Source: Tricharina praecox (Eukaryota). Taken from it: a stretch of DNA of 64,000 bases. Within the stretch, counting starts at the first letter, position 1. The number at the start of each line of letters is the position of its first letter. The DNA lies in NCBI RefSeq assembly GCF_024521635.1, contig NW_026250408.1, positions 248,001-312,000 of the forward strand. The letters run 5' to 3'. The position numbers and the translations under genes are program-made. The notes under the pieces are model-generated. The model did not search any database. It had not been told where the DNA came from and saw only the letters and a list, made by a program, of their open reading frames with translations. Shown here in pieces: positions 6,961-63,807 of the stretch.

Positions 6961-8433
6961 TTACGCGGCAATCCTTGTAGTCCTCCTGCGCGTACTCCTC
7001 CGGAGCGACTCGACCTCGGCCTGTGCTCGCCGCTCCTCCGCCGCCTCTTCCCGCACCACCGTCTCGCCCACTTGTTTCCGCCCCTCCCGTACCTTGCCGT
7101 TCATGGCCGCGACGCCGCCGTTGGTGGTGGTGTGGCCATTCACGTGCGAGTTTGTGATGTCGTCTTTCTGCGGCGGGAGGAGAGCGGCGACGCGGTCCCG
7201 TTCTACAGCGGCAGCGGCACGTTCGCGCGAGGCGGCGTAGCGCGCCGACGCGTCGCCACCCGTCCATTGCGTTCCGAGCCAGCGGTCCCAGCAGATCAGG
7301 AATGGCTGCGAGTAATTGGTCTGCCGGAGGTGTCAGTGTTCCGTGTTCCGTGTTTTCTCTCCCCCAGCTGTTCCGCGCCCACGTACCTTGATTCCCCAGC
7401 TCTGGTGGTGCACATCGTGGTAGCCGGCATTATTCCAGAAGATCTTCTGCAGAGGATCCCATGGCAGTGCGTACCCGCAATGGTCGTCGACGGTCTTCAT
7501 GGTCGAGAAAGAAAAGAAAATCATTCCGCCGCGGATGCCCATTCCCGAAAGTTTGTAACCGAGCCCGGCGCCGATGGTGTCCATGAGTAGACCTTCGAAC
7601 CAATGGTTGTAGAGCGCGCCGAACGCGAATGGAACGTAGAGACGGTGGTGACGAGAGTGAAACGTTTCTATAGAATTCGGTTAGTGTTACAAACAGTTGG
7701 CGAGGTGGATGACGTAAACGACTGTTGTAACGGGGGAAAGGGGGGGAGACGCACTGTAAAGCCACTTGGACTCGTGCATGAGCCGGTGCAAAAAGTACTG
7801 CCATGTGTCGAGAACAAAGATTGCGAACCATATCCTGACAGCCGGCAGGATATACCAGTAGACAAACTCTGCGACCGAAAGCTTCCAGTCCGCCGGACCA
7901 CCGCCCAACCCCAACCATCCCATAGCCGTGTTCAGCAGCTGGCCGCCGCCGGCGCCCACAACCCCGCGCACAACCTTCTCCTCCAACGCGGCACCATTGA
8001 TCCCGACGACCCCCAGGGCCGCCGTCATCCATCGCTCGACCGACAAGAACCGCGTGTACAGCGCAAACACTTCGGCCGCCTCTCGACCCACCATCTCGGT
8101 GGGCTCATAGAACGCGGTTATCCCGCCGACGATCGTCTGGACGATGTGCTGCAGCACGACATCGCGGATCACCTCGCGGCGCGTAACGTGGTTTCTTTTC
8201 AGGACCTCTTCGGGTGTGTGTAGCCGATACCGCGACAGGAGATTGTAGGTGTCGAGGAAATGGAAGAACAGCGACAGCGACCAGTAGGTGATGATGGGCA
8301 GCGCCAGCAGCACCCAACTGTCGGGTATTGGGGGTAGCAATGGCGGTAGTGGAGTTAACGTGGTCGGCGGAGGAGGCGGGAAGGGGAACGAGCTGTTTGT
8401 CAGTGAAGGTAGTGTTGGCGGCTGCGAAGCCAT
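6961..8433 (-). CDS. SUR2: Sphinganine (sphingolipid) C4-hydroxylase, fatty acid hydroxylase superfamily, 439 aa; exons 8433-7755, 7667-7387, 7320-6961
   Basis: The spliced product has the di-iron His boxes DTWQYFLHRLMH, FHSRHHRLYVPFAFGALYNH, KTVDDHCGYALPWDPLQ and YHDVHHQSWGIKTNYSQPF, plus the N-terminal RYRLHTPEEVLKRNHVT. Introns are 7754-7668 (GTGCGT..CTAAC..TAG) and 7386-7321 (GTACGT..CTGAC..CAG). Exon lengths sum to 1320 nt. Confidence 0.97.
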
Positions 8434-9339
8434 GTTGTGTATGTGAGAGAATCGGAGCGGAGTCTGTGTGGCGATCGGGCCGGAAGGGCTGAGGGCCGGG
8501 AGCGAGAAAAGGAGCGACAGTGCGTTTTCGTCCGGGGGAGAGTGTGTGAGTGAGTGCGTGAGTAGAACGACACGACGACAAGAGCTGTAGAGTACCGATG
8601 TTACGGGGGGCAGGTGGGCGAAACGAGGTGTGAGCGAGCGACGGAAGATCGAGAGGAGGATTTGCGAGTTTGTAGGCGGAGCGGTAAAAGAGAGTGAAAG
8701 GAACTTGGCTTGGAGGTATTCGTAAGGGTGGTGGGTTGATCTGTCAGTCTTGGGGGGGGGGAGGGGGGGTGAGTGGTGACGAGGTCTGTCTCTTCCGTCT
8801 GTGTCCTGTCTGGCGTTTTTTGCCGCAGAGGATGGAATTGGTTGATTAGTGGGCAGGTTCCGTGCAGGGTTTGGTGCTACCAAGCGTAGCGAATTGGGTT
8901 TGGTGGACGAAAAAGGCCGCTCGGATTTGTTGCTATGTAAGCAGAGCACTCGCCACGAAGCCGAACAAAGTCGAGAGGAGAGCAGCCAGCGGATCGTCAG
9001 CGGCGGGCAGGAGGTGATGGAACGGACGAGTCGTTTCAGGAGCGGACAGGAGGAGTTGGAGGTTCGGGGGGGCGGGGGGGGGGGGAAGAAGAGAGATGGA
9101 GGATTCTTCGACTGGAACGGCCGGACAAGGCGGATAGAGGTTCGAACGGCTGCTGACTAGCTACTAGTGGTGCCTGCTTGCTGACTGCTGCGGAGGTATG
9201 GTATGGTATGGTCTGGTCTGGTATATGAGACCAGGAAGACCGGGAAAAGGAAGGAGGGAAGCCAAAGTCCGACGATCCGAACGGCCAACGGAAGGGATAA
9301 ACGAACAACGAGAGAGAGACAAGTGATGATGACGAGGAT

Positions 9340-29880: not shown

Positions 29881-32574
29881 CCTATCAAAACTCCCGGCAA
29901 CCAACAACCGCCATTCGTCCTTTACCGTGTTGCCTAGGATTTTGCTTTTCTGCGGGCGGCTGGGTGTACATACGGTACTGCACATGGGGATCTACATCAT
30001 ACATATCATCGGACGAACGGTCAACTTTCAACAGGGAGCAGAGACGGAGGGGCGCCTGAGGCCTTCATGTGAACAGTGCACATCGCTTCGGCCGATACCA
30101 GTTGCCCTACACGCCATTCATACATAGGTCTTGACTTGCAAGCATGGCCTGTCCATAACTAACTAACTAGTTACCGTAGTCATGGCTACTAGTACAAGCA
30201 TGGCGTCCCAATTAACCGGTAAGCTTTGTTGGAGATGGAACTGGGTCGCCGATCAAGTATCATCTACATATGCGGCGTAAGTTTCATCCCCTAGGTACAG
30301 AGGGTTCGGTGGATGAAGGAATATCATCCAGCTCTGAGCGCTATGTACCTAAAGGGCGGTTACATGGCTGACTGAAGAGATCCAGAATGTAAATACCCTA
30401 GGTAACAACGTTGTCGGATGTATATGTCCGTCCCATCTCACCGTCGGCGTGTGTTGACATGATACCCTGCGTCAAGCAAAGGATCTCAACCTGGTGGGTT
30501 CCCTGACGATTGTTACACATTCTTTAGCTATCTTCAGCCACCTTACCACCTTACATTCTTCGGTACCTAGGTAGCGGGCTGTCTTGTGGCAGAACATACT
30601 AATATTTGGCCTAACTATAGTTAGTAGTAACGCATATGCCAATGCTATTTACATAGGACCATTGGTAGTAGGCAGCCGAGAAAGCGATGATTACATATTC
30701 GATTTCTACAAAACAGAATGGCAGTTACTTGTGACATGGAATACCGGTAGTAGCATCGACAAGGTCAAAATACGTGTTTTGATGTCTGATACGATCTTAA
30801 TAGAGTATCTGTGGGAGCGGGAAACGATGTTGTTTCGCCCTCCCCTGAACTATGCCGTAAAATGGTAGTGCCAACGTATTTTCAAAAACAATGGTAGTGA
30901 TTTCGTATCAGTACGGTCATAATACGTATTTTTCTGCCCGGATACGATATCAATATGCGTCCAGCGAGAAACATCGCATTTCTTACCCCTCCCCCTTGAC
31001 TATACAGTAGTTAAAACCATATCGGGACTCGGGAGGGCACTTGATCACCGGGCACCTACAACAGCCGTGATACTACGGGGCAAGGGATGGATTATGTAAA
31101 TATGTACTGATTGGCGGCTACTGATATGTATCATACATACGCTATATAGTATAACTGGACGTCTGCTTAAACGATATAAACAGTCACTTGGGCACATCAC
31201 CTCGGCCTTGATATATTGAACCTACGTCGTCGTCCCATTGTTGTTGCTTTTTTTTTTGCTTTTGTCTTTAATAGCTAGCTTCTGCGTCTAGTAGCCGAAT
31301 AAGTACACTGTCGTATAGTACGGTAGATATCGATAGCGGCCAGCGCATCACATCACCGCGATCGCCACATGCGTCAACTACTCTAGCCCTGCCAAACTTG
31401 GGTGTGCGGTGAAGAGGTGAACAACGGGGGTCTGGGATTTGCCAGATAATACTCTAGGTAGCGAGTGGCGTGCGCTGCGCACGTGAGCAGATGATCGCGC
31501 GGTGCTGGGTACCGGTACCAACTAGAGTAGGTATTGCCCGGCGGTGTATGTATTCACCTCTCGTCCCACAATCCACAGCCCGCTGCAGTGACCAGTAGTA
31601 CATATGCACCGAGCCATCGCCGGCATTCACAACTCAACCGCAGGTTTACGAACAGGCCTCGCCAACAGCCACCCGCAGAAAGCATCCAGCACGCACACGG
31701 GTCATCATACGATCTACTCTAGAGTACGCTCGATACTGTGCCCATGGTAATCAGCAAGCTCGAGCACCAGATCAGGTCTCAGATCAGCTTCTATCAGATC
31801 TTCCCACGAGCCATGGCGAGAATATCTGCTACATAGTGGTTGCTCCTAATAATATGTGTTCGATAGTTGATAAGAAAGGTACGTAAGGCGGCGTGTCGGC
31901 GAGAAGTGTAAATGCCAGCTTTCAGCACGTTCTTCAGAATTATATGACGGATGCGATAACTTTGAAGGATATAATAGGGAATGCACTCGCTGTACACTTT
32001 GTTATTGCCAGCAGGGTCGCTGGTCACTCTTATCTTATCAATTTCCGGCCCACTCTACCGTTCGGATCTCGACTACATGCAAATGAGTATCGGACGGGCA
32101 ATCTTGACGCCCCCGCTGGCAATCAATCGATCATACCGGGACTCCTTTACTCTACTCAAATACCACAAGAAATAAAAGTAAGAGATCGTGTACAGAGTCA
32201 GAATAGATGATTAAATACCCTCACACCCGAGTACAGGTGGCGGTGATCTTCCGCGTAAACAATTTAGTAAAAAAGGCTAATTCTGCTGTCCGTTTGTCTC
32301 ACTTCTCTTGCTCAGTCTCGACCAAATGGTTCGCACGTCATTTATCGGAGGTTAGGGTTGCTGGTGGCCAGAGGGGGGGGGGGGGGGGGGACAAGGTATC
32401 CGTTCGAGCTTGGCGTTTTACCACGATTTGCAACATTTTTCTCGCAGGGTCTGACTTCTGCCAAAGCTATCAAAGCTAGCGGCTCGGCAACGGTCATACT
32501 AGAGCCAGCTATCACCATCGCCAACCGCCGTCAGCAGCAGCTCCTGTCAAGTTTCAACGCTTCACTCACTCAGT

Positions 32575-34542
32575 ATGGATCGCCTCAAATCTATGTCGAA
32601 CGCCGTCAAGGAGCGGATACCAGGGCAAGAGCCGAAGTCGTCGTATGCGGGGTACGGCGACTCACGGAAATCGACTCCTCCCGGCCGCCTCCGCAGCTCC
32701 ACGTCCGAGGGAGGGTTGGGCGAGCGGTTTACGGGCTTGGTGAAGCGCGTTACGGGCAAAGATGAAGAGGAAGAACGAGTTGCGCGTCCAGTGGCCGCTC
32801 TGAAGGATCCAAATTCCTTCGCGCCTCCGCCGAAGCACCGTGCTGCCTACGGAGACGATGTGGCCTCCGCCTCGATCCGTATGGGCTCCCAGCCCCCGCC
32901 TGTGCCTACGAGAAGGGCTACGATTGAAGATGGTGCGAGACCCCCGCTACCGCCGCGTCTGCCGCCGAGAAGGTCGCCGGCTACGGATACTACTGCTGCG
33001 TTTCCCGAGGAAAGACAGGTTTCGGGAGAGGATTTGGCCCACAGAGGTGGATTGAGCTCCGGCTCCGTCGGTGCGCTTAGGCGGTTGGGGAATTCAGGGA
33101 TCACGATTCCCGGGTTCGAAACGACCAGCTCTACGAAGAACCAATCCTCCACGAAGACGTCCATACTGCCACCGCCACCACCATCACCTGGAAGTCGTCC
33201 TTCCATCAGCTCCTTAGGAGACCGCTTCTCAAAGTCCAATCCCGAGGCTCCAGCTACGGGTACCACCTTCAAAGAGAAGCAGGCAGCGATCAAAACGGCG
33301 AACTCATTCTACAAAGACCCCACGAAGGTTTCATTCACAGACATGAAAGCTGCAGCTGGTACCGCTAGGAACTTTCAGCAGCGTCATGGAGAGCAGGTCG
33401 CCGAGGGCGTAAGGGTCGGGAACAAGCTGGGACTGATCCCAGGCAATGCCGAGACACCACCAGAAGCCTCTCATCATGAACCCCCACCGACGCCAACGCG
33501 GGCACATATCGAACCCCCGCCGACGCCAACGCGGGCACATATGCAACCCCCACCTCTTCCCGCGAAGAAAAAGCCACCGCCACCCCCGCCGAAGAAGAAA
33601 CCGATATTAGCCACACCGAGCCCCCCACCTCCGCCGATCCCTGCAGCCTCCCGCCCGCATCAGTCATCATCTTTAGCAAAATGCTCCTCGTTGCCCAATT
33701 GCGGTCATCCAACCGACACCGTTTCGGAGCTCCCATGCGATTTAGATCTTTCCCTCGAGCAGGAATGGTTCACCACATCTTTGATGCGCTTCCCGCCGAG
33801 CATTCACAACAATCCGTACAAGGCGTATCGCACATCCAACTCCTGGACACGCTCAGCCGCTGGACGCGCCAAGCACACGCTGCTACTCTCACTCCTGTGG
33901 ACGCAAAACCTCTCCTATACGCTGATCAGACTAACCTGGGATGCATCTGCGCCGGCCGCCACCGTCAAAGCGGAGCAGCGTCACTTCCCGCCTCCGCCTC
34001 CTCTTTCCGCACAGGAGCTGCACACACAGGAAGGCCGGGGGCACGAAATCGTCGAGTGGTGCGAACAGAGAATAGGCACTCAGGTGGGCAATGGCGAGTG
34101 CTGGACTCTGGCGCACGACGCACTCGAAGCCACTGCGGGCCTCATGTCGAGCCAGCAAACAACGCACGGAGCCTGCATCTTCTCCCACTATCCCCCCTCA
34201 CCTCCACAAAAAACCGAGGGTGTCGACATCCGACGTGGCGATATCCTGCAGTTCCTGAGCGCAAAGTGGGTTTACCCTGACGGGGGATGGACTACGGCGG
34301 GTGCTCCCGACCACACGGCCGTCGTTACCGATGCCTGGAAGGAGGGAGAGACGTGGGTGTGTGAGGTGCTCGAGCAGAACGTCGGCGGGGTCAAGATTGT
34401 GCAGACTGGAAAGTATCGTCTGGGTTCAGGCAGCGGCATGTGTCAGGGGGGCGTCAGAGTTTTCCGTGCTGTCGAGGACGAGAGAGGCTGGCATAGGGGA
34501 TGCTCGGGTGGTTCCAGCGAACCTCTGGTCTGGGAGGAATAG
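32575..34542 (+). CDS. 655-aa proline-rich protein with C-terminal cysteine-proteinase (CHAP/papain-like) fold domain; Aim3/Bbc1-like family
   Basis: Single long ORF with ALKDPNSFAPPPKH, GTTFKEKQAAIKTANSFYKDP..NFQQRHGEQVAEG and polyproline/PxxP tracts. C-terminal IGTQVGNGECWTLA, RRGDILQF, GAPDHTAVV and EVLEQNVGG follow the Cys/His/Glu pattern of CHAP-like folds. Confidence 0.9.
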   Translation: MDRLKSMSNAVKERIPGQEPKSSYAGYGDSRKSTPPGRLRSSTSEGGLGERFTGLVKRVTGKDEEEERVARPVAALKDPNSFAPPPKHRAAYGDDVASASIRMGSQPPPVPTRRATIEDGARPPLPPRLPPRRSPATDTTAAFPEERQVSGEDLAHRGGLSSGSVGALRRLGNSGITIPGFETTSSTKNQSSTKTSILPPPPPSPGSRPSISSLGDRFSKSNPEAPATGTTFKEKQAAIKTANSFYKDPTKVSFTDMKAAAGTARNFQQRHGEQVAEGVRVGNKLGLIPGNAETPPEASHHEPPPTPTRAHIEPPPTPTRAHMQPPPLPAKKKPPPPPPKKKPILATPSPPPPPIPAASRPHQSSSLAKCSSLPNCGHPTDTVSELPCDLDLSLEQEWFTTSLMRFPPSIHNNPYKAYRTSNSWTRSAAGRAKHTLLLSLLWTQNLSYTLIRLTWDASAPAATVKAEQRHFPPPPPLSAQELHTQEGRGHEIVEWCEQRIGTQVGNGECWTLAHDALEATAGLMSSQQTTHGACIFSHYPPSPPQKTEGVDIRRGDILQFLSAKWVYPDGGWTTAGAPDHTAVVTDAWKEGETWVCEVLEQNVGGVKIVQTGKYRLGSGSGMCQGGVRVFRAVEDERGWHRGCSGGSSEPLVWEE

Positions 34543-57409: not shown

Positions 57410-59107
57410 TTGTTGATAGAGCTGAATTATGGAGTGTATATCCCACGGAAGTCGTGTTGATGTTGATGATGATGAGAGAGAGAGAAAATGTTGTTGATGA
57501 TGAGAGAGAGAGAGGGGAGAGGAGGCGGAAGTGGGGGAACCCTTTTATTTGGAAGCGGTGCGGCTTGGTGCGGCCGATGCTGAGGGCGCAACCCCGCACC
57601 CCCACATCCTCGCACACGCCGAAGAACTACAAACCGTGGCTGAAGGCAGGGCGACTTTGTCGTTAGAGTTCTTACCGGGAATCCAAAAGCACTCTGGTAT
57701 GTAACGGAAGCGGACGAAACACATGTCCCTACCGGTGTGACACTGCACCAGGCATGTCACATAGATACGTACGTATGTAGTGGTCAAACGCACTGTGGCA
57801 GGGCAGGTACTTGGGCGGGTTCTATGTACACGGTGGTGAATCGCAGACGATTTGTAGGCAGATGGATCCACCAGACGGAACGTAAGTTACGTCGAGCTCG
57901 AAGTGGTTGGTACGGCGACGACGGAAGCTAGGAAAACCTCCGACAACGTCAGGAATCCGGACAACCATGATATCCAGGGATTCCTCATAGCATATCGCAG
58001 CCCAACAGCCGGGACAGACGCTTCGTTTTCCGGCTCCTCAGCCTGCCGAAAGGAAACCAGACGAGGCTGACAGCACGATCGGCAAACGAACGGTGAAACG
58101 TGACCTTCCGGGGCTAATCGGACCGGTCACGACTCAGTGGAGACGGAGATACACTACTGCATAAAGCGGAAGTACCAAACTACACGGTCTCCTGCTGGAA
58201 TAGTCACAAAGTCCATGGGCTACTACCCAGAGGCCTACATATGATGCGGAGGGCGCAGTCACCACGCCGGCACTGCAAGCGGGCTCTAATAGACAACATA
58301 ATGCCTCTTTCAGCAGGGTCGCCATCTAGATACACACAAAAACCATGAACGAGTAGATACACTGAGTAGGTGCCTGGAAGGAAGAGGGGAACGATGATGA
58401 TGTTGATGTGATTGCAAAATCTGGAGAACTGGAATCTTCCCACCACCACCACCACCACCCCGCCAACTTGGAGATTTAAAAGATTAAACGTAGAACTCAA
58501 GGAATTATTTTTACGGAACGCCGACTCCGGACTTTGCACAAGAAGATTCACGCTGCGCCATCCTTCACACCCTCGGTTTGCCTCCCTTACTGGCCTTGCC
58601 GTTTCCCTTGCCTCCCCGACTGGAAGAGGCATCGCGAAATGCGGGTGGCGGATGGTGTTGGCATTATGCTGCTTGAAGCCTGTATCGTGCTGAAGATGGT
58701 AGCGGTGAGGGATTGTACAGCAGTAGTCACGTGGGGTTGTTTGGATTTTGAGGATAGTGTGTCACGTGAAATGGTACCGGAAGGGTTGCTGAGGCCTGAG
58801 GAGCCATTGAGGGTGGGTCACACATCAGTTGGCGATTTGTCGTCTCATTGACCGTGATGTGGGGCCTCAAAAGTATCACGGTCTCTAGAACATCTATAAA
58901 TACCAGCTCCCCGCCCCACTATCTCCCTTCTTTCTACTACATCCATCCTACTAAGCGCTTGTTCATCCTCGAACCACGAACAATAGTAAGTTCCCAATCC
59001 TCTCCCCTCCTCCCCCCACAATCCACATACGACTCCACACAAAAACCGTCCTTTGCATATACATCATCTACAATTGAGATTTGCGAGCTGTACTCACAGT
59101 CAGATAG

Positions 59108-59649
59108 ATGGTTGCCCCAGATATTCCCGCCACCCACGGGCACCTCCTCCGCGACCGCACAACCCTCAAGGCGCCGGACAGAGTAAGATATTCACTCTTC
59201 CCTAGCCACTATTTAATGCATCACCCCCTCATTCGATTTGCACACAGCTTTCCCCAAGCTTCGTCGAGCGGAGGAGGGCCCGTCGAGCGAAGAAGAGCAA
59301 GACCCAGCGTGCGAAGGTACGTTCATTCATGCCGATCCATCTCTGTATCTATATCTCTAAAAATATACAGAAAGCCGCCGCCAACACCACCACCACCACC
59401 GCCGTCCCCGCCGCCGCCGCCACTACCACCACCAAAGCCGCCAAGGGCCGGTCCAAGAAACCACCTAAGGCTATCAAGTACTGGATGGTCCTCACTCTCG
59501 ATGGCGGGAGGAGGATTACCCAAGTCGCCGAGAGTGCGGAGGTGCCTGAGGACGCGATCTCTGTCAAGATCGTGGTCCCAGCCTCCCACCGGTTCTTAGA
59601 CTGGCCTGTGGTGGCTAGATTGAAGGGGAGGGGAGAGGAGGAGGGGTAG
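59108..59649 (+). CDS. 140-aa small basic orphan protein (LRDR-LKAP family, paralog A); exons 59108-59182, 59248-59316, 59371-59649
   Basis: Two phase-0 GT-AG introns (GTAAGA, GTACGT donors) give MVAPDIPATHGHLLRDRTTLKAPDR|LSPSFVERRRARRAKKSKTQRAK|KAAANTTTTT...KAIKYWMVLTLDGGRRITQV...RGEEEG*. TATAAA at ~58895. Confidence 0.75.
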
Positions 59650-60729
59650 AACAAGAATAAAAATAAAAGCATTTTTTTTTTCAAGTCAAACGTCTCGTGA
59701 ACCGTCTGTAGTGTGCCGGTGCTGCCATCGAGAATCAGTCCCGAGTGTACTTTGTTTCTTTGCTATGTAGAACAGAGCGAGAGACGGCTCCTTTGATAAT
59801 AACCTTCCAGGCCGGCGGCGGGGTCGAGAGGAGAGTAGGTACACCCATAAGAATGATGAGATACATAGAGGTTGAGCGTCTATTCTGTAGAGGATCAAGA
59901 AGATAGAAGAAGAAAACCCGCGAGTGCCAGCTTAAGTCCCCCTTCCTCATTCACCAATCGGCCCCGCCATGCACCAACGCTGGTGCCCACTATTAACTAG
60001 ATTCGCTTCCTCCCGCCGACAGGAGTCCTTCATTTCCTAATCTCGCCGAGAGCTCTTGCATCACTCCGCCACAGCGGAGGCTTAGTTAGCCTTCATCTGG
60101 CTATCACTCGTTCCCATTCTCACGTCCGTATTAGGCTTCAGCCGACTTGAGGACATCGGATCGGGCGATTCAAATCGGAGGTGATGCGAGGTACCTGGCT
60201 ACCAGATATGACAGTAAAACTCTTCCAGCTGCCTATCGTGTGAACAGGCTAAACCGCAACACAGAAAACCTTCATCATCAGACACTGTGGAGGAGGAAAC
60301 GTGGACGACGTCTTACATACCGGGGGTAGAGTACAGTGCGCCGGCTCGTGACCCCAACGTTTGAAACGACTAATTATCAGCTGAGAACCTGGTGCCATCG
60401 GATGGCCAACCATTATCAAGTTTATAGAACCCAAAAAAGCGTCTGGCTCTTGGCCAGAATAATGAGAGCATTGCCGTGCTGGGCCGCTTTCGCCTTCCGG
60501 CCGCCGGGGGTGACGGAGTTGTTGATGTTGTTCGATTTTGTCTGTTAAAATTGTTAGAACCAGAATCATGGAGCGACCATATTGCGCAAATGGCTCTCAA
60601 CATCCTCAGTATCGGGCTCACCATGAGCGCTGAGCCAGGAAGAGCTTTTTTAGTCGTGCAAAGATCATTGTTAGATCGGCGGTGGATATTGCACATAGCT
60701 AACGGGCGCGCTCAATCGACAGTCTGCTA

Positions 60730-61060
60730 GTATCTGCGGCGAAGATAGCGTGGTATCTGCGGCGAGTCAGCCTTGCCTGATACTGTAGGTCGGCATAGGA
60801 GGACAAGACGTACCGGCTGCAGGAGGGACAGATGTTTTCGGACAGCGAAGGACGGCAATTCCAGGGTGTAATTGCGGCGAAGATAATGAGCTACCCGCGG
60901 CAAAGAGAGTGTGGTATCCGCGGCGAGCCAGACGTGATACGTAGAATGGCATCGAAAATTTGGAAGACGACGGGTACCGGCTGTAGAAAGACTGACAGGT
61001 GCTGTCAGTTGACAGTCAGCGGAGGACGATAAGCAAAGTGGGATATCCGTAGCGAGGCAG
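60730..61060. repeat. Degenerate GTGGTATCYGCGGCGA repeat region related to 45-190
   Basis: Units TATCTGCGGCGA, GTGGTATCTGCGGCGAG, GTGGTATCCGCGGCGAG and GGATATCCGTAGCGAG, plus TCGGACAGCGAAGGA (60838-60852). The internal block GCCTGATACT..GTAGG..CATAGGAGGA is duplicated. Confidence 0.55.
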
Positions 61061-61374
61061 GCCTGATACTACTGTAGGATATCATAGGAGGAGCACGATG
61101 GGTATCTGCTGTAGGCAGAGGTCCAGAGACTATCAGAGAACGACAGCGGCAACGGGTAACGTAGCAACGATGCTTGCCAGCTGTGTGACGACGAATTCGG
61201 AATAGCCCGCTGGCCTCGCTGTGGACCTAGTACTGGCTCCACCGTGGATATATCATATGGCGTTCTCGTTGCAGTGAATACTGTGTGACGGAGTGATGGA
61301 GGAGCTATCGGCGAGAGGACTCAGTGATGGAGAAGGTGTTGGTGTGAGGAGGATTCAGTGATGGAGGAGCTGAC

Positions 61375-61828
61375 GGCGGGAGGAAACGAATGTTGTTAGT
61401 AGGGAGCATCAACGTTGACGGGTCCAGCGAAGTCGTCAGCTCCTTAATCGTCTGCTCCTGAACAATCTGCTCCTTAATTGGCTGCTTCTTAATTGGCTGC
61501 TTCTTAGTCATCTGCTCCATCTTCTTTTTCTCTCTCTCTCATCTACCGAATAGACGGTCAACTTCCATATATTATCTTTCTCTGTGTGCGCACTGTGCTC
61601 TCCTCTTGATTCCATCCTGCCTGGAGGGTTGTTACCAAAAAAACCCGTCCGCAAAACCGTTGCTGTCTGGGCTGAGTCTTGTGGACGTTGTTACCTATGC
61701 ATTTTCCACACGGGCGAATACCTTTGATATCACTCGTTCGTGGTTGAATACCGTTGACATCACTCGTCCGTGCACGAATACCTTTGATATCACTCGTTTG
61801 TGCACTATTCGAATTGCACGTATATTTC
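61375..61828. repeat. Direct repeat copy 1 (~450 bp), with three 30-bp subrepeats (61716-61805) and 15-bp subrepeats
   Basis: Aligns to 63377-63807; the core TCTGTGTGCGCACTGTG...GGCTGAGTCT is identical over ~95 bp. Confidence 0.9.
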
Positions 61829-62326
61829 ACTGCAGGAGGCACATTTCACTGGTTGAATTGTGTTCGGCTTTGTGCGTTAGACAAACCTGGGCTGTGTCGT
61901 CGTTTGAGAGCCTCGCAATCGAATACTACCGGTACACCGCGATGGGGGTAGTCGATTGCCGCCGCTGATGTGCTGCCTTCGCTGCTGCTCAAAGGTCGAT
62001 TGCGCAAGTTTGTTTGAACGATTCTCCACTGAAAACCAGCAGGTGCTGGTGTCGATTGCGTTTCTACGTAAACACACGCAAACTCCCCCCCACACCATCG
62101 CTACTTGCCCGCCCGATTAGTCGGGCGTCAAGTATAAGTAGTCCTGTTCTCCCCCCACTCTCTTCCTCTTTTCGTTTCCACGCACACGAGAAGATCTAGA
62201 TACAAGCGAAGAATAGTAAGTTATCACCTCCTGAATCCTTCCCTATCCCCAACTGAATCACTCCTTAATCGTCCACGTTTCACGTGCCTGCAACCTCCGC
62301 TAATTCCTGAAGAATCTGCAAGAAAA

Positions 62327-63022
62327 ATGGGTCGGGCGAAACACCCAACTGTGAAGCCCAGGTACGGACTGAGGGACCGTAAAAAGCTCAAGGCGCCCGA
62401 GAGGGTATGTTCCCTTTCTGCCCCCCCCCTCCCCCCCCAATCGAACATCTTGCTAACTTACTTCCACAGTTGCAACAGGAGGCTCTCAAGCCGAGAAGGA
62501 GGTACCCCCGCCGTAAGGTAAGTGATATTTTTGCACGACTGTAGATTACGGGTGCAAAACTGACGGTGTGTGTGTGTGTGTGCAGAAGACCATTGCTCGC
62601 CCTGCCGCTCCCTCTGTGACGACCTCCCGTCCCCCCACCAAGACCAAGGTGAGTCCCGCATCACTTCCGCCATGACTCCCGCAGATGCTGATGCGAGTCC
62701 CGCGTAGTCGGATGCGAGTTCCGCTGTGACTACTCCGACTGCGACTGATCTCAGTCCAGCCGTGACTTCCGCAAACTCTCCGCGCTCTGTCAAGACCTCA
62801 TCGGAATCAGCTGAGAACTCATCGAGCTCAAGCACGGCGTCTCCAAGCCCCGCCACCGCTCCAAGAAGTGTATTCAGCTCCCCCGCTTTCGCGGTCGTCA
62901 TATGGGTGAGTGGCCCATGATTCCGCGATACTCGTTTTCCTTCTCTGCTCCTAGCTGACCAAACCTAGAAAAGGCCTACGGTCGGTGGATTGAGGCTGCC
63001 TGGAAGTAGATGTCAAAAATGA
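62327..63022 (+). CDS. 146-aa small basic/Ser-Thr-rich orphan protein (LRDR-LKAP family, paralog B); exons 62327-62404, 62470-62517, 62586-62648, 62708-62905, 62969-63022
   Basis: Four phase-0 introns with GTATGT, GTAAGT, GTGAGT and GTGAGT donors and CTAAC/CTGAC/CTGAT branch sites. Product MGRAKHPTVKPRYGLRDRKKLKAPER|LQQEALKPRRRYPRRK|KTIARPAAPSV...; exons sum to 441 nt with no internal stop. Confidence 0.7.
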
Positions 63023-63376: not shown

Positions 63377-63807
63377 GGCGGGAGGAAACGAATGTGGTTA
63401 ATAGGGAGCATCAAGGTCGACGAGTCCAGCGAAGTCGTCAGCTCCTTAATGGTCAGCTTCTTAGCCGTCTGCTCCGTCTTCTTCTCTCTCTCTCATCATC
63501 TGCCGAATATAACCTAGACGACCAACATCCATATCTTGTCTTTCTTCTGTGTGCGCACTGTGCTCTCCTCTTGATTCCATCCTGCCTGGAGGGTTGTTAC
63601 CAAAAAAACCCGTCCGCAAAACCGTTGCTGTCTGGGCTGAGTCTCGTTGACGTTGTTACCTATGCATTTTCCATCCGGACGAATACAGTTGATATCACTC
63701 GTTCGTGGACGACTACTTTGGAGATCACTCGTTCGTGGAGGAATACCTTTGATATCACTCGTTCGTGCACTATTCCCGACGCAGAAAGAATTGAACGTAT
63801 ATCCCAC
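63377..63807. repeat. Direct repeat copy 2 (~430 bp), with three 30-bp subrepeats (63681-63770)
   Basis: Aligns to 61375-61828. Confidence 0.9.

Follow-up and report, generated by a model that had tools for sequence, protein, structure and literature searches.

Two spliced genes, A and B, near the 3' end of the window

The window analysed here is a 64,000-nucleotide stretch of the Tricharina praecox genome (contig NW_026250408.1, positions 248,001 to 312,000), and two spliced genes, A and B, lie on its forward strand. As predicted from genome DNA, A has three coding exons encoding 140 aa and B has five coding exons encoding 146 aa. The introns of A are all GT..AG, and those in its coding region are phase 0. 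The features are listed below.

58645-60120, +: A-type duplicated unit, promoter to downstream region, common to seven dispersed paralogs, with limits that differ among copies
58895-58902, +: TATA element of A, aligned in paralogs
58986-59107, +: 5'-UTR intron of A, acceptor immediately 5' of the ATG; junction also in gene model P0002
59108-59182, +: A coding exon 1, 25 aa (motif codons 59141-59182)
59183-59247, +: A intron 1, phase 0, 65 nt, GT..AG in 8/8 A-type copies
59248-59316, +: A exon 2, 23 aa, Arg/Lys-rich
59317-59370, +: A intron 2, phase 0
59371-59649, +: A exon 3, with an (ACC/GCC)n Ala/Thr linker up to ~59440 and a conserved ~60-aa domain at 59455-59637
59656-59667, +: AATAAA-like signals 3' of the A stop
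61375-61810, +: upstream part of the ~2-kb tandem unit bearing B; second copy at 63377-63775, 5' of B2
62133-62138, +: TATA element of B
62216-62312, +: 5'-UTR intron of B, AAG acceptor after a GCTAAT branch site; B2 arranged alike
62327-62404, +: B coding exon 1, 26 aa (motif codons 62363-62404)
62470-62517, +: B exon 2, 16 aa, Arg/Lys-rich, flanked by phase-0 introns (62405-62469 and 62518-62585)
62586-62648, +: B exon 3, a 63-nt symmetric exon; B2 has four such exons
62708-62905, +: B exon 4, Ser/Thr/Ala/Pro-rich
62969-63022, +: B exon 5 including the stop

The three exons of A and their R|L phase-0 junction are as the sequence-only reading had proposed; for B, it had placed the end correctly at 63022 but called two coding introns where four were found. 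The public gene model P0002, itself a prediction only, has three junctions identical to those of A and a start ATG farther upstream. The GT..AG 5'-UTR intron is retained in seven of the eight A-type copies described below and is deleted in the copy on C21. Exon 2 of A is a candidate NLS or DNA-binding patch. In two structure models of the A domain, both of low confidence (pLDDT 55 and 58), three strands predominate, and fold searches with these models were uninformative (best Z 2.8 and 2.6). The 3' end of B exon 4 and the following intron also occur at unrelated loci on C24, C34 and C39. The tandem neighbour B2, a paralog of B, has its ATG 532 nt past the window end, and the YxLR start is present twice in its exon 1.

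A and B share a 5' module

The part common to A and B is a 5' module that consists of the TATA element, the 5'-UTR exon with its donor, and a motif exon that ends in [YH]xLR[DN]Rxx[LI]KxPxx followed by a phase-0 intron. When the A motif 12-mer was compared with 127,989 six-frame 12-mers of the window, identity above 6/12 was found only in A itself (12/12) and B (9/12); since no other 12-mer exceeded this level, the likeness of the two motifs is not due to chance. At the DNA level, A and B scored 35 over exon 1 (14.7 ± 2.5 when shuffled) and 39 from TATA to donor (16.4 ± 2.7 when shuffled), each above 500/500 shuffles. The upstream promoter, 5'-UTR intron, intron 1, exon 2, intron 2, exon 3 and 3' UTR all stayed within the shuffle range, their scores being reached by 164-464 of 500 shuffles. 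The earlier claim that exons 2 and 3 are alike thus holds for composition, exon 2 being Arg/Lys-rich in both genes, but not for alignment of the DNA.

The pair with its common motif, R|L junction and 5'-UTR donor was confirmed, the GTAAG donors being located at 58986 and 62216, each right after its 9-mer. Among the six A-type and two B-type copies compared, this near-identical 9-mer is confined to A and B, and we rejected it as a family signature. The two proteins contain 29-30 Lys+Arg residues and have pI values of 11.0 and 11.8. At 140-146 aa, they are small proteins and not the microproteins first suggested, for which the cut-off is ~100 aa.

The motif exon belongs to a scattered, partly decayed family

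A genome-wide search found 13 motif exons (eight A-type and five B-type), so the lineage-restricted family that had been proposed does have further members. Three A-type copies (A included) and B are intact, B2 is nearly intact, and 8/13 motif exons are broken or relics. RIP was rejected as the source of divergence, with C-to-T rates of 0.08-0.12 in all contexts, and retrocopying was rejected because introns are retained. The proposal of swappable cargo is weakened: it is based on the unrelated tails of A and B and on one visible C-terminal swap, an inversion through the (ACC/GCC)n linkers; however, the motif-bearing half of this chimera is a pseudogene, and the low-complexity tail of B has no recognisable cargo. 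With its paralogs, pseudogenes, purifying selection and no distant homologs found, this is a lineage-specific birth-and-death family, scattered and partly decayed in one cup fungus.

The broken copies, together with a search of 5.8 billion clusters that named T. praecox proteins only, would also fit a set of once-functional duplicates that are all now decaying, with no useful protein made from A or B. However, A, two A-type paralogs and B retain all splice sites and frames at a DNA identity among paralogs of 66-80%, and exon 1 of A differs from that of its closest paralog with a pS of 0.52 and a pN of 0.06. We therefore consider general decay very improbable.

The copies are dispersed on at least seven contigs with promoter and terminator duplicated along, and the pseudogene rate is high, as might be expected if the family derived from a selfish or mobile element, either as its remnants or as its cargo. 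In that case, a chromatin tether of a transposon would be the source of the motif, and each copy would have moved as one unit. Three copies (C61:221k, C61:178k and C2) have a common 5' limit near -480, 3' remnants that we take to be LINE-like adjoin the C9 copies (by eye), and R-x-R...P-x-R motifs occur in retrotransposon tails. Several observations argue against such an origin: introns are kept, as they would not be in retrocopies; 3' limits in full-length copy pairs range from ~+550 to +1010; no terminal repeats bracket the A unit; and 16 ten-kb stretches contain ordinary neighbouring genes, where inspection by eye of ORFs of at least 250 aa revealed none that was transposase-like. A-type copy ends are mostly ragged, the three copies above excepted. 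The sequence-only reading had named a transposon ORF match as the result that would recast the family as TE-derived; none was found in Pfam, in neighbouring ORFs or in sampled integrase-locus ORFs, where 0/19 long ORFs from 20 of 112 loci had a like motif (a comparison of integrase loci only, with Gag regions outside its scope). Furthermore, A and B are multi-intron genes amid host genes, with no Pfam match to foamy-virus or retrotransposon Gag. We regard a mobile origin as unlikely.

Selection falls on the motif

Counted against majority codons without a tree, the motif codons of the eight A-type copies carry 17 synonymous and 7 non-synonymous variants (N/S 0.17, p 2.3e-5). This ratio may overstate constraint, because divergence in introns (p-distance 0.16-0.23) is below that at synonymous sites (pS 0.31-0.42), and the baseline for synonymous change could therefore be too high. 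The other two sense frames over the same codons gave N/S values of 2.2 and 2.3, and the residues 5' of the motif gave 0.78 (p 0.36); in the five B-type copies, the motif value was 0.42 (p 0.021). These ratios indicate that purifying selection falls on the motif and not on the preceding residues. In addition, LLRDR is retained in all three intact A-type copies, and its three changes (R to C, D to Y and R to L) are all in broken copies.

One alternative is that A and B are basic proteins of a generic kind, nucleolar or nucleic-acid-binding and similar to protamines or H1 tails. Their motif would then be part of an NLS/NoLS or of a patch for binding DNA or RNA and would have no acidic-patch specificity. 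Linker histone H1 tails and protamine-like proteins are small, very basic and Ala/Thr/Pro/Lys-rich, and A and B (pI 11-12) are alike in this; their second exons are similar in charge though unalignable as DNA, and the B2 exons contain six S/T-P-x-K sites, which resemble those of linker-histone tails. In contrast, selection is focused on a specific pattern including Leu, Asp, Leu/Ile and Pro rather than on charge; constraint is weaker in exon 2 than in exon 1 (pooled ratio 0.53 vs 0.25); and the A and B proteins have no S/T-P-x-K/R site and no Pfam histone or protamine match. The winged-helix domain of linker histone H1 was not found either, by Pfam or in the low-confidence, mainly three-stranded A-domain models. 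On balance, we regard this alternative as rather unlikely.

Alternatively, the motif could be a short linear docking site for another protein, such as a kinase, a phosphatase, an import receptor or a lineage-specific partner. It is short, constrained and within disorder, its [LI]KxP half is conserved to the same degree as its LRxR half, and hydrophobic-basic-Pro patterns are typical of docking motifs. However, no specific partner motif was found, and the B-type Tyr/Leu/Arg spacing fits a structurally defined nucleosome binder. We consider another partner quite unlikely.

The homologs found are almost all from T. praecox

An exon-1 profile searched over the 5.8 billion clusters yielded four family proteins among 610 candidates, all from T. 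praecox. A C-domain profile over 1.84 billion representatives gave nine matches, six of which correspond to loci of the same genome; P0010 and P0011, long repeat-rich bacterial-looking proteins, were rejected as chance matches, and P0012, a fragment without exon 1, is the sole conservation outside this genome. No homologs of A exon 3 were found at 50-161 aa, 0/597 metagenome candidates were confirmed with the C-domain, and the strict motif pattern occurred 0 times in viral contigs. Three soil metatranscriptome contig sets, at a word share of 0.00, gave no match either, a result that has no bearing on expression. Pfam, PHROGs, PDB sequences, ESM Atlas and Rfam gave no usable match, and no known family, fold or transposon ORF was matched in the databases searched. 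A listing-level literature search, with the genome paper and supplements outside its scope, found no paper on the family.

The motif resembles a foamy-virus nucleosome anchor

The motif had been likened to the chromatin-binding site (CBS) of PFV Gag, with the residues Y537, L539, R540 and R542 (PMC9040877; PMC6042332). In PFV Gag, R540Q nearly abolishes nucleosome binding and Y537Q lowers it ~5-fold (PMC12125541). The resemblance stands for the B-type copies, 5/5 of which read Y-x-L-R-[DN]-R in the PFV register Y(-3), L(-1), R(0), R(+2), but is weaker for the A-type copies, 8/8 of which have His in place of the Tyr that is strictly conserved in foamy viruses. Leu(-1) is present in 12/12 and the anchor Arg in 11/12 aligned exons, the single Arg loss being in a broken copy; the 13th motif copy, outside the alignment with a frameshift farther on, also reads LLRDR. 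The four-residue core is frequent by chance: with family copies included, six-frame translation of own-genome DNA (427,936 residues) contains [YH]xLRxR 32 times. The H2A of this genome retains the acidic-patch segments.

As in PFV Gag, the family has a short motif within a basic disordered region (PMC9040877; PMC6042332; PMC12125541). Unlike Gag, the A/B family comprises cellular intron-containing genes; the homology is limited to four residues, and the family has a conserved downstream [LI]KxP with a phase-0 intron and no aromatic matching Y544. KSHV LANA 1-23 and HCMV IE1 likewise join a terminal short Arg-anchored peptide to an unrelated functional region, and IE1 has a His upstream of its anchor (PMC9040877). 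However, the match to LANA and IE1 ends at a hydrophobic residue plus Arg, and they tether viral genomes, a cargo that the A/B family lacks.

A nucleosome tether as a possible function

Directly supported are the family and its exon structure, the selection that the motif is under, the decay of the majority of copies, and duplication both dispersed and in tandem. We favour, at somewhat less than even confidence, the reading that A and B are nuclear proteins tethered to the nucleosome acidic patch, helped by the basic second exon. Here, small basic proteins of the nucleus would form a young family shaped by birth and death, all derived from a single 5' module (promoter, 5'-UTR intron, motif exon and phase-0 intron). 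The first Arg of the motif would anchor in the acidic patch of H2A-H2B, and the Leu at -1 and the Tyr/His at -3 would pack next to this Arg like L539 and Y537 of PFV Gag. The Arg/Lys-rich exon 2 may serve for import into the nucleus and for contact with DNA. After a flexible Ala/Thr/Pro linker, a small beta-rich domain would follow in A and a disordered Ser/Thr tail in B. Occupancy of the patch could then put these proteins in competition with chromatin factors or the H4 tail and so adjust compaction, with a single life stage as the most likely setting; that this stage is sexual development is our guess from orphan genes of the relative Pyronema confluens, which are often induced at that stage (PMC3778014).

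On the side of the tether are motif selection, LLRDR retention, the B-type PFV register, the doubled YxLR of B2, the pI and the H2A patch. On the other side are the match to PFV at only four residues, the chance-frequent core, the A-type His, the 8/13 broken copies, the possible N/S overstatement, outside conservation limited to the P0012 fragment, and a conserved downstream [LI]KxPx with no counterpart in the PFV residues compared. The fuller proposal is improbable as it stands: a fungus would possess virus-style nucleosome tethers as a family of its own, encoded by a self-contained cassette (promoter, 5'-UTR intron, YxLRxR exon and phase-0 intron) that was copied genome-wide and gained new C-terminal parts through exon duplication and (ACC/GCC)n recombination. 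The small proteins encoded would sit on the acidic patch and reset how tightly chromatin is packed in spores or sexual tissue.

Should the motif bind the acidic patch, A and B would be cellular proteins, small and stand-alone, that dock in the foamy-virus manner. The copies would then offer a natural series for learning what the patch reads, with Tyr or His, a single or a doubled motif, and intact or decayed genes, and fungal orphan genes, a class that is large and unexplained, would gain a function open to testing. If the motif does not bind the patch, the family is still a clean case of new genes arising via module shuffling, with selection on ~12 codons. Fungal orphan families in Neurospora are likewise short genes that arose via duplication, relocation and repeat-aided recombination (PMC11628664); A and B differ from these in having a selected motif exon common to two otherwise unrelated subfamilies.

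A and B share a 5' module and a motif

The two genes and a tandem paralog of B lie on contig C61 as follows:

Window 59108-59649 (+): gene A
Window 62327-63022 (+): gene B
G000:C61:312532-313564 (L039 2532-3564), just past the window end: paralog B2, in tandem with B

Gene A encodes 140 aa in three exons, and B encodes 146 aa and ends at 63022. All coding introns were GT..AG and, as the sequence-only reading had held, phase 0, but the common three-exon layout that it described did not stand, B having five coding exons. A public gene model of A (P0002), itself a prediction, agrees with ours at all three junctions, including that of the 5'-UTR intron, and starts upstream of the TATA box. Both predicted proteins are very basic (pI 11.0 for A and 11.8 for B). 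In B2, the YxLR start is present twice in exon 1, and the gene has four symmetric exons of 63 nt and six S/T-P-x-K sites; its final long exon measures 200 nt, 2 nt more than the 198 of B, and this difference leads to an early stop.

The motif ending coding exon 1, [YH]xLR[DN]Rxx[LI]KxPxx, is common to A and B beyond chance, since among 127,989 six-frame 12-mers of the window only these two exceeded 6/12 identities. DNA likeness was limited to the TATA-to-donor segment and exon 1, where 0 of 500 shuffles attained either score; the seven remaining separate segments aligned no better than shuffles. The TATA-to-donor score was 39; none of 15 other TATA..GT segments of the same genome, a small control, scored above 24 with either gene, and the 12 cross-subfamily pairs scored 18-39. 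The near-identical 9-mer reported before both donors was present, but among the compared copies it is peculiar to A and B. These comparisons make it likely, though not certain, that the 5' module of the two genes has a common origin. An inverted match (125 nt, 72% identity) was also observed between window 59792-59914, downstream of A, and 61522-61639, upstream of B.

Copies and distribution of the family

The host is a pezizalean cup fungus with a 38.4-Mb genome (G000) in 104 contigs, of which C61 carries the window at 248001-312000. An AIM3/BBC1-family gene (window 32503-34542, +; Pfam E 5e-39) is an ordinary fungal neighbour, and window 7687-9156 (-) holds a probable fatty-acid/sphingolipid hydroxylase exon with a weak Pfam match. 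We searched for the family by DNA, protein and pattern; copy counts are lower bounds. The further members that the earlier reading anticipated were found: the strict motif followed by GT occurred at 7 places (control 0), and 9 of 11 matches to a looser pattern belonged to the family (control 2). At least eight A-type copies with exon 1 (three on C61, two on C9, and one each on C21, C28 and C2), an A-type 3' fragment identical on C63 and C38, and at least five B-type exon-1 copies (B, B2 and three on C39) were detected. Three of the eight A-type copies were intact, and five carried stops, lost acceptors, truncation or a frameshift. The C39 copies were without TATA and 5'-UTR donor and lost exon 2 after a few codons.

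Family copies retain introns, share 66-80% identity and have ordinary genes as neighbours. The copied unit begins as far as ~480 nt upstream of the ATG and continues for 550-1010 nt beyond it; its ends are mostly ragged, and three copies have a 5' limit in common. That the family is a transposon remnant appears quite improbable. At least 112 integrase matches were found in the genome (L087-L106), and three of them are near-identical LTR-retrotransposon Pol ORFs, which we take to end in a chromodomain-like stretch.

The one related sequence that our searches detected beyond this genome was P0012, on a JGI contig of 1,527 nt. It is a diverged fragment of the conserved exon-3 domain (C-domain) that G000 does not encode (best identity 45-54%; hhalign probability 97.4%), and it is without the motif exon. 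The distribution is narrow. A and B had no match in Pfam, PHROGs, PDB sequences or Rfam; they belong to no known family, and are neither Gag nor H1. Literature searches listed no published account of the family. The family is real and, as far as our searches reach, undescribed; its mechanism is sharply testable and putative.

Several copies had individual features. The intact A-type copy at C61:221k (L040 5536-5835, minus) has the first half of its C-domain duplicated internally. At C21 (L042 5006-5030, minus) the 5'-UTR intron is almost cleanly gone and both coding introns are kept, which may reflect intron loss or microhomology deletion. C63 and C38 are 100% identical over at least 9.5 kb (L048 443-10000; L049 1-9558); this stretch, either duplicated in the assembly or a segmental duplication of very recent date, contains an A-type C-domain fused behind an inverted linker.

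Module exchange

At C2:1026.9-1029.5 kb (L044 4447-6952), an A-type 5' half whose exon 2 contains a stop runs into the 3' half of a small, unrelated family known from C83 and C24; the opposite strand carries the reciprocal chimera, the 5' half of that family with an A-type C-domain. Because both joints fall within (ACC/GCC)n linkers, we infer that an inversion between these linkers probably produced them. The end of exon 4 and the last intron of B were found again on C24 and C39, in loci whose 5' parts differ from that of B. Shuffling is therefore real, but for the proposed swappable C-termini the only intact swapped products found were A versus B. The family falls within an established class, the lineage-specific genes of fungi, which PMC11628664 describes as built by duplication and repeat-aided recombination.

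The small unrelated family (L192, L193, L194; C83 and C24:404k) includes a C24 member with a long SPKK-like repeat tail. C39:1603-1613 kb (L053 1700-9900) is a dense array of internally repeated segments having B's last intron in common. C39 and the start of C9 (L045, L046, L051, L053) have short common repeats, presumably LINE 3' ends, one of which interrupts the A-type copy C9:1.5k.

Selection on the motif and a putative chromatin tether

Counted against majority codons, synonymous variants outnumbered non-synonymous ones by 17 to 7 in the motif of the eight A-type copies (N/S 0.17, binomial p 2.3e-5). In the two remaining sense frames N/S was 2.2 and 2.3; the antisense frame with common third positions gave 0.31, as expected. 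N/S was 0.78 (p 0.36) for the preceding residues and 0.54 (p 0.0013) for the exon-3 domain in six copies, C2 and C9:1.5k being left out for their unrelated 3' parts. The B-type motif gave 0.42 (five copies, p 0.021). Introns diverged by 0.16-0.23 and synonymous sites by 0.31-0.42, so the synonymous baseline of N/S may be high. All three substitutions within LLRDR were in broken copies. We consider it highly improbable that all copies are decaying.

In the prototype foamy virus (PFV) Gag chromatin-binding site, R540 docks in the E61/D90/E92 pocket of H2A, and Y537 and L539 are packed beside it (PMC9040877); binding is almost lost with R540Q and falls ~5-fold with Y537Q, and the wild-type peptide is a competitor of the H4 tail (PMC12125541). 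All five B-type copies have Y, L, R and R in the same register, whereas all eight A-type copies have His in place of Tyr. Family proteins would tether to the nucleosome acidic patch through the motif, and A and B possibly work in the manner of the Gag site. We rank this first, tentatively and at less than an even chance, because selection hits exactly the PFV-like stretch in small, very basic proteins. However, only the four core residues are involved, which are common by chance (32 occurrences in 427,936 residues, counting those of the family itself). Generic basic nucleic-acid or nucleolar binding by such proteins is a serious contender, if an unlikely one. Acidic-patch tethering also leaves unexplained the equally conserved [LI]KxP half; that the motif is a docking site for another protein seems improbable. 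More than 20% of Pyronema orphan genes rise in sexual development (PMC3778014), and by analogy a role there might be guessed at. In a viral sequence collection, contig L079 (2454-3336) carries a host-like H2A and H2B pair in divergent orientation, and L082 a fused H2B-H2A ORF.
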